Of a DNA stretch of 64,000 bases, positions 2,008 through 43,425 are shown in pieces (position 1 is the stretch's first letter; every line of letters starts with the position of its first letter). The notes beneath the pieces were generated by a model. The model was given only the letters and a program-made list of their open reading frames with translations. It did no database searches and was not told the DNA's origin. A program made the translations under genes and the position numbers. The DNA is taken from NCBI GenBank assembly GCA_963779615.1, contig CAVZZA010000003.1, positions 1,024,001-1,088,000 of the forward strand. Reading direction: 5' to 3'. This DNA comes from an uncultured Nitrososphaeraceae archaeon (GTDB lineage Archaea > Thermoproteota > Nitrososphaeria > Nitrososphaerales > Nitrososphaeraceae).

Positions 2008-2781
2008 TTATTTGACTAACTGATATTTTGATCTGTAGCCACGTGGATTTATCATCATATCATCATAATTAAAAGATGACGAATTGCCGATAATGATAGT
2101 GGTTATCATTCCCATCATATCAGGATAGTCTAACATTTTTTCCAGATCTGTAATAACTACAGATTGACTTTCTCTAAATGCACCCTTAACTATTGCTACA
2201 GGGGTTTGAGGTGTTCTGTACCTAAGGAATATATCTCGAGCGTCTTGTAGCTGATGAATTCTTTTTTTGCTAGATGGATTGTAAACCACAGTGACAAAAT
2301 CGCCTGATGCTGCAGCTTCGACTCTTTTTACAATTATCTCCCAGGGAACAAGAAGATCACTCATGCTAACAACAGCAAAATCAGTCATAAGGGGAGAGCC
2401 TATTAATGCGCTACATGAATTAAGAGAAGAAACCCCCGGAATGCATTCAACATATAGCCCATTGTTTTTTTTCCAGCCCTTCTCTGCCAGTATTTCATAG
2501 ATTAAGCCAATCATCCCATAAATTCCAGGGTCGCCTGATGAAACTAACGATACAATGTTTCCTTTCTCAGCAAAATCTATAGCTTGGTTGGCACGATCAA
2601 CCTCCTGGGTCATTGGATATCTATACACTTCTTTACCATCAATCAGATCTCCTATCAAGGAAACATAGGTTTCATACCCTACAATGATTTTACTTTCTTC
2701 AATGACTTGTTTAGCACGAAAGGTCATGTGGTCATGATGACCTGGCCCTACACCAACAACATATAATTTTCCTGAACTCAT
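2008..2781 (-). CDS. cobJ: Precorrin-3B C17-methyltransferase (CobJ/CbiH)
   Basis: KLYVVGVGPG, VSSGDPGIYG, IPGVSS, SMSDLLVPW, NPRGY motifs; likely start MSSGK at 2781. Confidence 0.93.
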   Translation of the reverse strand: MSSGKLYVVGVGPGHHDHMTFRAKQVIEESKIIVGYETYVSLIGDLIDGKEVYRYPMTQEVDRANQAIDFAEKGNIVSLVSSGDPGIYGMIGLIYEILAEKGWKKNNGLYVECIPGVSSLNSCSALIGSPLMTDFAVVSMSDLLVPWEIIVKRVEAAASGDFVTVVYNPSSKKRIHQLQDARDIFLRYRTPQTPVAIVKGAFRESQSVVITDLEKMLDYPDMMGMITTIIIGNSSSFNYDDMMINPRGYRSKYQLVK

Positions 2782-2893
2782 GATAAAAATACCGCACCCA
2801 TTTCTTTTATTTTTTTCTTTAGCATTATCAAAATCATTAGAGTGACAATACATTATGCCACAAAGTTAACTGAATGACAAAAACACAATATTC

Positions 2894-37527: not shown

Positions 37528-38940
37528 ATGGAACAAGGGAGAGAAAAACCAATAGGCAAATTAGATAATGCAAAAGAAACAAAAATTTTGGTGACAGGTG
37601 GAAGCGGTTTTATAGGAAGTGGACTGATAAAAAACCTAATAGATAAAAAAAATTCCGCAAAATATCCATATTTCATACGTTGTCTAACAAGGAATAAAAA
37701 ATCTATAAGCAATTTAAAAATTAGTGAGAAGGACATACAGATTGTCGAAGGAGATCTATCTAATTATAATGACTGCTTGAATGCCTTAGATGGGATAGAC
37801 ATAGCATACTATCTTGTCCACTCCATGGAAGGGTCCACAAAAGATTGGAAAAAGTTCTCTCAGAAAGAACAAACCACCGCCGAAAATTTTTCTCGTGCAT
37901 CCTCCCAGTGCAATGTTAAAAGGATCATATATCTTGGTGGGCTAACCCATGGGCAGGATAACGAAATATCCCAACACATGTTAAGCAGAAAACAGGTAGG
38001 AGAGACACTTGCAAAATCAAATGCAAAGGTAACCATTTTCCGTGCAGCAGTAATTCTTGGAAGTGGAGGAGGGTCCTTTGAAATGTTAAGGTATCTGGTT
38101 GAGAGGTTGCCAGTAATGGTTTGCCCAAAATGGGTTTTGACCAAATGTCAACCAATATTTATTGGGGATGTGCTGAATTACCTTTCAGGGTCAATTGAAA
38201 TAGAGGAAACAGAGGGAAAAGCATTTGATATCGGGGGCCCTGACATTTTAACCTACTCTGACATGATGAAAATATATGCCAAAATAATTCATAAATCGAT
38301 AAAGATTATAAGAATACCGGTTTTAACCACTAAACTATCATCCTATTGGGTAGATTTAGTAACACCGGTGGAAGCATCTCTGGCAAGGCCACTTGTGGAA
38401 AGCCTTAGGCATGAAGCTGTTGTAAAGGAACACTCCATCGTAAAGCTAATTCCTTTAAAATTAAAAACTTTTCAAGAATCATTGGAATATTGTTTAAAAG
38501 AAGAGAACAGATATAAAAGGATAAACAAAAATGAAATTAAAAAAGAGAGAACTTCAGTTTCGCTAAATTACAAAATTCTTTTGGTATCACTATCTTTGTT
38601 ATTAATAATAGGCACCACCTATTATTTCCTCGACAGCAGGCAGGTGTTTCTAAAGCCATTTTGGTTAGCGGTGGCATCGCTTTGGTATTTATCCATCATA
38701 TTTTCGATCTATTTCATAAGATTCGGTGCAAGGTTGGGGGCATTGGTAGCTGGGATAGTTGGTTGGGCAACACTAATATTCTGGATATCGGATAACTATT
38801 ACATTATTTCAGGGTATTCCTTGATATTAAGCAACCCAAACTCCAATGAGACATGGAGAAACATAGTGGGCATAATAATTGCATCCTTTACCATACTTTC
38901 GTCTCACAATATTTTTAACAAGATAAAGGTGCGGCATTAA
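37528..38940 (+). CDS. YbjT-like atypical SDR (NAD(P)H-binding) with C-terminal TM domain
   Basis: TGGSGFIG, AYYLVHSM, IYLGGL, RAAVILGSG, SFEMLRYLVERLPVM, LARPLVESL; about four TM helices. Confidence 0.85.
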   Translation: MEQGREKPIGKLDNAKETKILVTGGSGFIGSGLIKNLIDKKNSAKYPYFIRCLTRNKKSISNLKISEKDIQIVEGDLSNYNDCLNALDGIDIAYYLVHSMEGSTKDWKKFSQKEQTTAENFSRASSQCNVKRIIYLGGLTHGQDNEISQHMLSRKQVGETLAKSNAKVTIFRAAVILGSGGGSFEMLRYLVERLPVMVCPKWVLTKCQPIFIGDVLNYLSGSIEIEETEGKAFDIGGPDILTYSDMMKIYAKIIHKSIKIIRIPVLTTKLSSYWVDLVTPVEASLARPLVESLRHEAVVKEHSIVKLIPLKLKTFQESLEYCLKEENRYKRINKNEIKKERTSVSLNYKILLVSLSLLLIIGTTYYFLDSRQVFLKPFWLAVASLWYLSIIFSIYFIRFGARLGALVAGIVGWATLIFWISDNYYIISGYSLILSNPNSNETWRNIVGIIIASFTILSSHNIFNKIKVRH

Positions 38941-39160
38941 ATAAAACGCCGAACACACTACAAAGATCACAAAGCAATGAAAAAAAGGAAACAGGTTTTT
39001 TTAAAATCTTACCTTTACACTTGCAGACATGGGAAATTTCTAAAAAACACTTTTTTAATTAAAACAATAGACAGGAAAATCAATTTTCACCATACATGTT
39101 AAAAAAGTAATTAGCACCAGTATACAATATTAGCACTATGTTAATATTTTAGCGAAACTG

Positions 39161-40075
39161 ATGTTAAATACGGCATACATAAGATTGAAAAAGGTTAAAG
39201 GCACCGATTACCTTTATCTGGTTCAAAGCAAATGGGACCCACTTTTGAAAACATCTGGGCAAAAAACAATAAAATATCTTGGCAAGGCCTCCAATGTCAC
39301 TGTTGAAAGTATTCCTCAAGAGTATAGGGATAACCCCAGAATTTTGTCAGCGATAAGGTCAAAAACTGGAAACCAGTCAAAAAAAACATCGGCAGTTGGA
39401 GGGTTGAAAAAACAGGTTTTCAACGCCCTAAAAAATGGTGATGCGGAAAAAGTATTGACGATAGCTCAACTGTACGAAAAAGAAACTAGCCTTGCGGAGT
39501 TCTACGATGACATCCTAAAACAGGTTTTATATGGGATTGGATACCTGTGGGAACACAATATATTAGACATAGCAACTGAGCATATATGCAGCAATATAAC
39601 TAACGAAATAGTTCACAAGCTAAATACGTATCATAAAAAGGACAGGAAAAATTCAAGTATTTTACTATGCACCCCAGAAGGAGAAATTCACAATATTGCA
39701 TGCAATATAATAGAGTCAATACTATTACAGAAAGGATACAAAGTACACAACATCTCACCATCGGCTCCTGCCGAATCGGTTATTATGCACATCAAAGATA
39801 CAAATCCATCACTAATAATGATTTCTGTGACCCTTAAAGAAAACATTGGAACATCAAAACGGCTCATGAAAAGGATAAGTACAGAATTCAACATACCTGT
39901 TCTTTTAGGAGGATTGGCAATAACAGAAAACAGTGAAAAGGAAAGGAAAGATATCGAAATGATGAGTAACAATATTAAGGTTATAACTAACGGAACTCTA
40001 AAAACATTGGTACGTACAGTTGGATTGATGACAAAAAATAGCACATTAACCAAAAACATCAAATCAACTCAATAG
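39161..40075 (+). CDS. CarH-like cobalamin-binding protein with basic N-terminal beta domain
   Basis: W-x9-EH (WEHNILDIATEH), EIHNIA, ISVT, LLGG. Confidence 0.82.
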   Translation: MLNTAYIRLKKVKGTDYLYLVQSKWDPLLKTSGQKTIKYLGKASNVTVESIPQEYRDNPRILSAIRSKTGNQSKKTSAVGGLKKQVFNALKNGDAEKVLTIAQLYEKETSLAEFYDDILKQVLYGIGYLWEHNILDIATEHICSNITNEIVHKLNTYHKKDRKNSSILLCTPEGEIHNIACNIIESILLQKGYKVHNISPSAPAESVIMHIKDTNPSLIMISVTLKENIGTSKRLMKRISTEFNIPVLLGGLAITENSEKERKDIEMMSNNIKVITNGTLKTLVRTVGLMTKNSTLTKNIKSTQ

Positions 40076-41482: not shown

Positions 41483-41831
41483 TTTTTGATCACATCAACG
41501 TTAATTGTATAAAGTAATAAAAACTATCAAGCAAATGTTAAAACATCCAAGTGCATTATCCATCCCAATTAAAAACATCATTTCATAATTGTGGCATATC
41601 AGGACATAAAGCAACCATTTGCTAAAAATATCAGTTAATGCAAATGAAGATAAAGAGCAAACTAGTTGCTTAATACAAATCACACACATATAATCATTTA
41701 AAAATGCTCACATCGCAAGCTTTGGGCATAATTTGCATTTCCACAGATCAAAGACATCATTATTCACAACTTTAGCCCTACAAGCAAAAAAGACAACAAA
41801 ACATAATAGAATAGAACGCAACAACAAACAC

Positions 41832-43425
41832 ATGTTAGACGGTTCAGAACCCTCATCATCCATATCACAATCATCAATAAGCAATGATCTTTTAGGAGTA
41901 GTCATAGGAGTTACTAATTCAGGATACGTTATTTTTGAGGGAAAAGAGCCAGTGGGTCTCGGAGAATACATAGTTATAACAAATACCGACAAGAAAAAAA
42001 TATTGGGCGTTGTAGAATCATGCCTTATTAAAAGTGATGCCTTAGACGATATTTCAAATTTTCAAGAAGCTTTGGAAAGTAAAACTGTTGCCGAAATAAA
42101 TAAAAGAGACAAAAGTTTTAAAATTAGCGTTAAAATCTTAGGTTTACTGAATTTACTAAAACAGTCCAAGGTAATTTTACCCGAAATTCCGCCATTGCCA
42201 GGAACAGAGGTTTACAAGGCAAATAAAAATGATCTAGAGGAAATATTTAATCCTGAAGACGAATCATGGCTAAAAGTTGGAACCCTTTTACGAAACAGTA
42301 ATGTCAATGCAAAAATAAACATCAACAAACTTACTACTCGGCACCTTGGAATTTTGGCGATGACAGGCATGGGGAAAAGTAATTTGGTCAGCATAATAGC
42401 TAAAGCAATATCAGAAATACCCGGGACAATGGTTATCTTTGACTATCATGACGAATATCACTTCTTAGATGGTGAAAACATTAATTTTGTTCAGGCCCAA
42501 ATAAATCCAAGGCTCCTTACTGCAGAAAAGTTTGCAGAAGTGATTGAGGTCAGAGACAATGCAGATATTCAAAACACAATATTACTAAAAGCATTTGACA
42601 ATGACGATTTGAAGAATAAAACGGAAGACAATTTTTGGGATTTTTTAGAAAGCAATATTCAGGAAATAGGCCATAAAGAAAAAAGATTCACAACTTCTGC
42701 AGATAGGGTATTAGACAAAATAAAAGAGGCAAGGAAAAGGTTTGACAGCATTTTAATCCCTAATTCATCGGATCCTGTTTCACAAATCAAGGAAGGAAAA
42801 GTAAACGTAATTAATTTGATAGAATTCACAGAAAAGCAAGCTAATGTTGCAATTGCTTTTTATTTAGAATCGATATTGTATCAAAGAAAGTTATCGAAAA
42901 GCAAGGGCAAGGGTTTAATAGCAAAGAAACACCGGAAAAAATCAGGTTTTATTTCACAGTCCAGTTATTGTAGTAATAGAAGAAGCCCATGTATTTATTC
43001 CAAAAAATGAGAATACGGACACAAAATACATTGCATCAAAAGTGGCAAGGGAGGGCAGGAAATTTGGCGTAGGCCTAATAATAGTTTCTCAAAGACCCAG
43101 GTCACTCGATCCCAATGTTTTAAGCCAAATGGGTTCTTTATCAATAATGAAAATAGTTCAGCAAGAAGATCAATCACAGATAGGATCGGCTAGTGAAGCC
43201 ATAAATGGGAAAGTCATAGAGCAACTGCCTTCGCTGAATCCAGGAGAAGCTCTTTTTGTAGGCCAATGGGTAAATTTACCCTCATTTATAAAAATAGATG
43301 AAATTAAGGAGAGAACGATGGGAAAGGACCCCGAGCCTGTAAAAGAGTGGAAAAACAATCAAATAAGCAAGGAACTGTCGATAGAAGACTGCCAGTTTTA
43401 TATTCGGGAAGAATACATAGATTAA
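41832..43425 (+). CDS. herA: HerA DNA-repair ATPase/helicase, frameshift near 42940
   Basis: HAS barrel; RHLGILAMTGMGKS; FDYHDEY; IEEAH; AREGRKFG; SQRP. Confidence 0.9.

Follow-up and report, generated by a model that had tools for sequence, protein, structure and literature searches.

The gene at 39161..40075 (plus strand) of the window, the 64,000-nucleotide stretch of a Nitrososphaeraceae archaeon contig analyzed here, encodes a 304-residue B12-binding regulator (P0001) in which a CarH-type B12 module is joined to an N-terminal domain of IS1634 type. We consider it likely, with a probability of about 0.65, that this protein is an adenosylcobalamin (AdoCbl) light sensor and a dark repressor of its own and of photoprotection promoters, acting through a 10-bp word that was likely taken from a transposon terminal repeat. 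The initial annotation had read the gene as an archaeal light or B12 sensor with a domesticated DNA-binding module, and this reading is supported at the sequence level: the operator tracks the gene, UV-repair genes co-occur with it, and the operator word recurs in IS1634 repeats. By analogy, we infer AdoB12 photolysis and DNA binding by the N-terminal domain.

The gene is defined by an open reading frame, by its homologues, and by a predicted structure with a pLDDT of 87. The search returned 385 homologues at E ≤ 0.001; those with names come from Nitrosocosmicus and other ammonia-oxidizing archaea and are called ‘cobalamin-dependent protein’, ‘MtbC1’, or ‘MerR family, light-induced regulator’. 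Contigs from RNA libraries of close relatives overlap parts of the gene at ≥85% identity in four of four runs, a weak match from which strand, start, and level are not readable (word shares ≤0.15); a second placement of these contigs fell short of the regulator start codon. The position of that codon is uncertain because the start methionine of 109 of the 121 homologues corresponds here to an ACG codon at 39170, at the usual 30 nt behind the operator, whereas the ATG at 39161 lies only 21 nt behind it and may precede the transcription start. Eight of the 121 sequences, the closest relatives of the query, have replaced the ancestral Met with Thr and added three residues in front (M-L-x-T). For window positions 39161–39172, either the start site has moved or ACG is used as a start.

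Residues 5–44 (39173..39292, plus strand) form a three-stranded β domain of IS1634 type, a predicted DNA reader on the grounds of homology, model, and charge, with nine Lys/Arg against two Asp/Glu. In agreement with the first reading of the sequence, there is no MerR helix-turn-helix: no Pfam family matches the first 80 residues, and the model places antiparallel strands at residues 3–12, 15–26, and 31–42, followed by short helices. These helices (IPxEYR; residues 45–68, 39293..39364, plus strand) form a linker to the B12 module that is present in regulators and absent from transposases. Within the domain, R8, K10, Y17, Y19, W25, Q34, Y39, and G41 are invariant, and the NF052513 match of the protein is limited to residues 79–262. 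Known three-stranded DNA-binding folds include the AP2, MBD, and integrase N-terminal types. An MBD match was seen at E 0.12 in one of 26 members, a profile of the domain had zero matches among PDB sequences, and a fold search with residues 1–66 returned a best Z of 5.2 (a ribosomal protein) and no Foldseek match at E ≤ 0.001.

The resemblance of this N-terminus to that of IS1634 transposases, also remarked on in the initial annotation, proved to be real homology in profile searches with shuffled and reversed controls and in an hhalign comparison. Searching 1.84 billion proteins with a profile of the domain gave 545 matches at E ≤ 0.001 and recovered an IS1634 transposase (P0254) at E 1.4e-8; this DDE transposase scores 215 bits on the IS1634 model NF033559, whose cut-off is 100. 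A second profile, built from 24 transposase N-termini with P0254 excluded, assigned 40.6 bits to the query over residues 5–44 and more than 20 bits to 117 of 121 homologues, compared with 0 of 121 shuffled or reversed controls (maximum 2.9). Because a transposase-only profile scores the query and its homologues and the controls fail, we take the resemblance as homology; direct hhalign comparison of the domain with the IS1634 N-termini gave a probability of 99%, an E-value of 2.3e-18, and 40% profile identity. The regulator itself has no DDE catalytic domain and no NF033559 match, and an NF033559/DDE search of this genome found no IS1634 elements. Companion domains were scanned in 90 of the 150 matches listed, out of the 545. 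Long proteins in this sample are mostly B12 fusions, and the other carriers are HNH nucleases (P0229, P0246, and P0265), an AbiEii-type protein (P0243, a toxin–antitoxin nucleotidyltransferase), stand-alone proteins of ~170 amino acids (P0221 and about a dozen more), and the DDE transposase P0254.

The B12 module consists of a four-helix cap (PF02607, B12-binding_2; residues 84–152, 39410..39616) and a Rossmann B12 domain (PF02310, B12-binding; residues 167–260, 39659..39940), both on the plus strand and above their Pfam cut-offs, the first also recognized by its motifs and the second by its fold. The AdoB12 photoreceptor signature W-x9-EH and the base-off ExH motif (EIHNIA) that the first reading had reported are indeed present in the ORF, as W130-x9-E140-H141 and E175-I-H177. 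In the cap, G127xxW130 (39539–39550, plus strand) and E140-H141 (39578–39583, plus strand) correspond to the upper-face adenosyl pocket of CarH-type proteins, a role described in the accessible part of PMC11796333, and G174-E-I-H177 of the Rossmann domain (39680–39691, plus strand) provides the predicted lower Co ligand. Residues G127, W130, E140, H141, G174, E175, and H177 are invariant in all 121 aligned sequences (the query and 120 listed homologues), and the W/E/H/H combination is found in 78 of 79 class-wide sequences. The light-response signature of CBDs, as far as PMC11796333 was accessible, comprises GxxW, EH, GxxH, and GxxxP. The query has the first three of these SignatureFinder motifs; at the position of the fourth (S199xxxP203, 39755–39769, plus strand) it reads SxxxP, and class-wide the G is found in 27 of 79 sequences and the P in 79 of 79. 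The position equivalent to His132 is Glu131 in the query and Ala in 44 of 79 class-wide sequences, and the H+3 position is Ala in the query (ExHxxA) and Gly in 64 of 80. By sequence, the top PDB match is 8JBS (CtMerR) at E 3.9e-12, and the top fold matches of the model are the photocobilins 8J2W/8J2X, 8JBS, and CarH. CtMerR is a green-light AdoCbl receptor whose tetramer is dissociated by light, and it has an Arg at the His132 position with the light response retained (PMC11796333, in part).

A tree of the B12 module, with uneven letter composition and a long-branched MetH row placed inside, separates the fused proteins from 12 archaeal B12 proteins that lack the fusion; this fits a single fusion event. 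Of twelve B12 proteins from Thermoplasmatota-phylum genomes that do not have the N-terminal domain (L236–L247), eleven have GxxW-x9-EH and are additional candidates for archaeal B12 photoreceptors, joined to other partner domains. A paralogue in genome G115 (L104:5005-5865) adjoins a photolyase; like P0151, P0152, and P0160, it has the same N-terminal domain and GxxH without the W and EH. Such a paralogue could be a light-blind partner, by analogy with CarA beside CarH. Each of G115, G221, G233, and G234 contains a second, weaker regulator match.

The database label MtbC1 would make the protein a corrinoid carrier of a methyltransferase system, as would the JGI names of its homologues and weak NCBIfam matches to MetH, MtbC, and MtaC (35–43 bits). 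We regard this assignment as scarcely credible. All NCBIfam matches lie far under their cut-offs (215–1011 bits), the lower-ligand motif is ExHxxA rather than DxHxxG and is accompanied by W-x9-EH, no methyltransferase partner cluster is found among the common neighbors of 80 loci, and the operator tracks the regulator gene.

Upstream of the regulator gene lie two candidate operator half-sites on the plus strand, TTAGCACCAG at 39111..39120 (14.5 bits) and TTAGCACTAT at 39130..39139, 19 bp after the first and at the BRE position. The second is directly followed by a TATA-like box, GTTAATATT (39140..39148, plus strand), whose putative function is assigned by position. A third half-site behind the TATA box (39149–39158) was rejected because it scores −13.9 and is not general across loci. 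Aligned upstream regions define a direct repeat, TTRGCACTA-N9-11-TTRGCAYTA, with a TATA-like box at once behind it; the repeat period is 19 in 143 of 198 sites, 18 in 41, and 20 in 14, and columns 11–18 behind the second half-site are A/T-rich. The window site is the best of the 3.17-Mb genome at 32.8 bits with TATA, compared with 20.6 for the next and none above 20 in the reversed-genome control.

With up to two mismatches allowed, the repeat is found before 62 of the 80 regulator genes and likewise before 48 of 61 members of an exported-protein cluster, 16 of 24 FAD oxidoreductases, 11 of 39 SDRs, and five of eight members of one membrane family. At the same tolerance, it is absent upstream of the neighboring GTPase (0/17), CoA-binding (0/15), and BirA (0/10) genes. 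Directly upstream of the photolyase (0/11) and of the pyrimidine-dimer glycosylase (0/10) no repeat was found, nor, in its own direction, before the periplasmic binding protein next door (0/12). TFB, taken as a negative control, is not clean, with the repeat in 0 of 28 but a single half-site in 14 of 28. The commonest operator-bearing target is an exported protein of ~290 amino acids (L042:3888-4769 and 60 related ORFs), often divergent from DUF1722; it has thaumarchaeal IPxW repeats, and its C-terminal domain contains Cys and matches no Pfam family. Distant operator sites with TATA stand before small membrane proteins and, in G044, before a photolyase on another contig. Soil lineages have Gly-rich membrane proteins of ~65 amino acids without a Pfam match (L113:1608-1802, L114:3756-3950, L117:380-580, L118:4060-4257, and L119:3143-3340) that follow perfect operator–TATA sites and are remote from the regulator gene. 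In G159, of the same genus, each of three regulator copies (L036, L037, and L038) has at least one half-site upstream.

The start codon lies 27–31 nt behind half-site 2 in 53 of 61 scored genes. Given archaeal promoter geometry, this spacing would place half-site 2 on the BRE and fits leaderless transcripts, and the direct repeat of the predicted operators abuts the core promoter, as in CarH. DUF1722 promoters have a second layout, in which an inverted half-site stands about 21–22 nt before the TATA-like box in 29–30 of 34 cases, a position that is more typical of archaeal activators. These single inverted sites, together with the fixed distance between half-site and TATA and the 27–31-nt start spacing, would also suit a light-controlled activator or dual regulator, with the half-site replacing a proper BRE and the bound protein recruiting TFB/TBP. 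We think this quite improbable as a general mode of action, since half-site 2 lies over the BRE position itself in the main layout, activation of photolyase in the dark would make little sense, and all characterized CarH-type DNA binders covered by the accessible part of PMC8156234 repress in the dark. At the inverted sites, activation may occur.

Our preferred reading is dark repression, for which the CarH mode of action (PMC8156234, in part) serves as a template. AdoCbl would be held between the cap and Rossmann domains, with His177 below and Trp130, Glu140, and His141 above, and the bound cofactor would keep the oligomer together in the dark. Two N-terminal domains would then sit on half-sites separated by about two helical turns, with half-site 2 over the BRE position, and TFB would be kept off. 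Light would cleave the Co–C bond, the oligomer would loosen, and transcription would start. In marine relatives, the predicted output includes DUF1722 and photolyase operons, the SDR, the FAD oxidoreductase, and small membrane or exported proteins.

The regulator, counted as a full-length match with a best E < 1e-30, is present in 119 of 301 class genomes, and the exact repeat in 93 of 301, compared with 14 genomes for the reversed-pattern control. Carriers and non-carriers differ sharply in the repeat (89/119 vs 4/182), in counts that show coupling and not independent trials because the genomes are kin and independence is overstated. Carriers outside the set from which the motif was derived have the exact repeat in 27 of 41 cases, one of them (G070) inside an ORF. 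The four non-carriers with a repeat comprise G032, with a broken regulator gene and its site, and three genomes whose TATA-less sites lie inside ORFs. The broken gene (L128, G032:C1:1500072-1500450) carries a stop within its N-terminal domain and is truncated, its operator is kept, and a second operator-bearing gene lies nearby. The regulator accompanies photolyase in 36 of 39 genomes and DUF1722 in 57 of 59, and 83 of 119 carriers are without a PF03441 photolyase. Within the largest genus (67 genomes), carriers exceed non-carriers in the repeat (29/39 vs 1/28), in photolyase (15/39 vs 0/28), and in DUF1722 (36/39 vs 0/28). Outside the phylum, the full fusion occurs in two of 351 Thermoplasmatota genomes; neither has a photolyase or an exact repeat. 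Of two Thermoplasmatota fusions checked for inverted sites, one has a single such site upstream (12.6 bits) and the other has none. Viral contigs gave 58 pattern matches, of which none was confirmed.

Neighbors were surveyed in 80 loci of about 11 kb (79 from relatives, and the window); locus L111 has no called regulator ORF. Recurrent neighbors are the SDR (39 loci), DUF1722 (34), the FAD oxidoreductase (23), the pyrimidine-dimer DNA glycosylase (12), and the photolyase (11). A photolyase or pyrimidine-dimer glycosylase lies within about 5 kb in 23 of 80 loci, and these or DUF1722 in 48 of 80; photolyase directly follows DUF1722 in four loci. Ammonia-oxidizing archaea are light-sensitive, and the initial annotation had pointed out that they are photoinhibited. 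A tie between the sensor and the photoinhibition of ammonia oxidation itself is not supported: the motif-linked genes are repair, stress, or unknown genes, with no amo gene seen among them. DUF1722 genes are reported to be frequent in light-responsive operons with photolyase and LitR (PMC11417400, in part), and photolyases of ammonia-oxidizing archaea have been linked to surface waters (PMC13591554, in part).

The circuit looks reduced in the present genome, where the autoregulatory site is the only one detectable. The assembly (92.5% complete) contains no homologue of photolyase, DUF1722, pyrimidine-dimer glycosylase, or the FAD oxidoreductase, and its other sites do not stand clearly above the reversed-genome control (25 real against 21 control sites). 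Two candidate regulon members were discarded: C1:33003 (18.7 bits, before an unknown 199-residue ORF) lies within the control range, and the best inverted site, C3:1023564, falls within an ORF on the reverse strand, and no gene follows it. The neighbor upstream in the window (37528..38940, plus strand), assigned by Pfam as an NAD(P)-binding SDR/epimerase-like protein and bearing a membrane tail, belongs to the family that 39 of the 80 loci have within about 5 kb, and neither its upstream DNA nor the genome scan gave an operator for it. Two near-identical UvsE genes (PF03851; G000:C3:985948-986721 and G000:C2:21445-22218) have near-identical upstream DNA, one lies beside an IS, and no half-site of ≥7 bits is found near either. 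The cobJ gene reported earlier in the window was confirmed as cobJ/cbiH (TIGR01466, over cut-off; 2008–2853, minus strand), 36 kb from the regulator gene and not linked to it. A CobA-type adenosyltransferase (C5:760908) is intact, and a PduO-type cobalamin adenosyltransferase (PF01923, G000:C4:67381-67885) was matched in two pieces with a stop. At 41733–43425 of the window, a HerA-like helicase is split into two ORFs of 425 and 127 residues, the relatives having one of about 530, through either a frameshift or an assembly error.

A soil/rhizosphere-type lineage without photolyase and with an autoregulatory site alone raises the question of whether the same protein and operator respond to something other than light on AdoCbl, such as B12 supply, redox, or a partner protein that took over after photochemistry was lost, as in CarA and class II LitR. 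The altered GxxxP and His132 positions would agree with such an input, and there are precedents in CarA, which binds B12 without needing it (PMC8156234, in part), and in class II LitR, which works with a LOV partner (PMC9758184, in part). We nevertheless hold a non-light input to be unlikely. W130, E140, H141, and H177 are kept in 78 of 79 sequences across the class, and the L104 paralogue shows what relaxation looks like; the repeat-bearing neighbors include no B12 synthesis gene family, the adjacent periplasmic binding protein has no repeat in its own direction (0/12), and UV-repair genes co-occur with the regulator.

The origin of the operator word was approached through the ends of the transposons themselves. 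The related IS1634 branch provided 80 loci, of which 60 near-complete ones were examined and 20 partial or redundant ones left aside. Of the 60, 13 did not satisfy the CCT[AG] end rule, and 11 of them were checked separately; the other 47 loci, which reduce to 27 distinct elements, have paired terminal repeats starting with CCT and often 5–6-bp target duplications, matching the description of the IS1634 family in the accessible part of PMC2266710. When scored with a matrix built from archaeal operators only (threshold 8 bits), 18 of 54 terminal repeats, from nine of the 27 distinct elements, contained the operator word, all at offset 17 or 19. Shuffled terminal repeats gave a mean of 0.06 matches and a maximum of two in 1000 runs, compared with the 18 observed; column-permuted matrices gave a mean of 0.44 and a maximum of 11, with 0 of 2000 reaching 18; and 21 of 2328 32-bp tiles of the same IS loci, repeat tiles included, have such a site. 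Five words are shared letter for letter by IS1634 ends and operator half-sites: TAGGCACTAT and TAGGCACTAG serve as half-sites 14 and 7 times, and TTAACACTAG, TTATCACTAG, and TAGTCACTAG 13, 23, and 2 times, respectively. The nine matching elements fall on four branches of a 44-column tree (L155 being placed by its likeness to L154). The remaining 18 of 27 elements score below 8 bits, including lineages whose N-terminal domain scores as high; domain likeness and TIR score are weakly correlated (Spearman 0.36, p 0.065), and the word is absent from the ends of L153, a member of the transposase branch that matched first.

Because the operator word occupies a fixed place in IS1634 terminal repeats, these comparisons point to a joint recruitment of reader domain and binding word from an IS1634 transposon. 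The simplest reading is that, as part of the transposase, the domain would recognize the inner terminal repeat and, as part of the regulator, the same word, and transfer probably ran from transposase to regulator. As the domain is shared with IS1634 and the word lies in the transposon ends, a transposon's DNA reader and its binding site were likely built into the host light switch. More tentatively, at somewhat short of even odds, we propose the full account: IS1634 donated its end-binding domain and a terminal-repeat word to a B12 photoreceptor that became the light switch of a UV/photo-stress regulon in about half of ammonia-oxidizing archaeal genomes. It would be a prokaryotic transcription factor derived from a transposase, its operators still matching transposon-end words letter for letter, and the first B12 light sensor known to control transcription in archaea.

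A different origin, leaving the circuit as it is, would draw domain and word from a reservoir of DNA-binding domains that are mobile and stand alone, or have them captured by the IS1634 branch. The domain does occur on HNH nucleases and on an AbiEii-type protein, as well as in about a dozen stand-alone proteins of ~170 residues. Of the 36 transposase rows in the 44-column tree, 35 fall on one side, and the regulators stand beside the transposases, grouped with the other fusions, and are not nested inside them. This genome has no IS1634, and in the phylum sample the domain is found in 29 of 301 genomes, exclusively those of ammonia oxidizers and exclusively on the regulator gene. Set against these points, distant IS1634 transposases (P0306–P0312) have a diverged version of the same N-terminus, which suggests a greater age for the domain in the transposase family than the narrow range of the regulators implies, and terminal-repeat words vary widely across IS lineages, with the operator equal to one subset. 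We therefore judge an origin outside the transposase to be rather unlikely, and favor recruitment from an IS1634 transposon.

In the literature covered, which largely omits subscription journals, neither an archaeal CarH-type regulator nor this operator nor the IS1634 N-terminal domain was found described, and the supplement of PMC11796333 could hold unnamed members of the family; nor was a light sensor or light regulon of ammonia-oxidizing archaea found. A protein, a candidate binding site, and a list of candidate targets are now at hand for these organisms. The match between operator and transposon end identifies, by inference, the end-binding domain of IS1634 and its site, and makes this an uncommon example from prokaryotes where one can follow back to their source the reader of a transcription factor as well as its operator. 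With its small non-HTH reader, 10-bp word, and green-light module, the regulator could serve as an optogenetic part.

Among known systems, CarH and class I LitR (Thermus thermophilus CarH, 5C8D/5C8E; Myxococcus and Bacillus CarH) share with the query the cap and Rossmann module, W-x9-EH and ExH, the N-terminal position of the (here predicted) DNA-binding domain, and, as predicted features of the query, a direct-repeat operator overlapping the core promoter, autoregulation, and targets of the DUF1722/photolyase type. They differ in having a MerR winged helix in place of the three-stranded IS1634-type domain, and a tandem 11-bp operator (nAnnTnnACAn) in place of half-sites 19 bp apart with the word TTRGCACTA. 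The query has no His132 equivalent, uses an archaeal TATA/BRE promoter, and scores 35.6 bits on the NCBIfam CarH model (cut-off 400). The closest solved B12 modules, by sequence and fold, are CtMerR of Chloracidobacterium thermophilum (8JBS/8JBT) and the photocobilins (8J2W, 8J2X, and 8J2Y), which respond to light without a bis-His switch (PMC11796333, in part). In these proteins GxxxP is present and the partner domain is of MerR, bilin-binding, or cyclase type; none has the present N-terminal domain.

IS1634 transposases (NF033559, archaeal branch) are homologous over residues 5–44 and have the operator word in the inner terminal repeats of nine of 27 elements, whereas the regulator lacks the DDE domain and is a stable gene with conserved neighbors and the extra IPxEYR helices. 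FHY3 and FAR1 of Arabidopsis act in light signaling. In these proteins, the DNA-binding part of a transposase serves a host regulator (PMC6000157, in part); they derive from an unrelated transposon family, are eukaryotic, and have no chromophore domain, and no homology is claimed. The regulator described here is neither a transposase nor a methyltransferase corrinoid protein; it would work like CarH but, lacking the winged helix, falls outside the MerR-type family.
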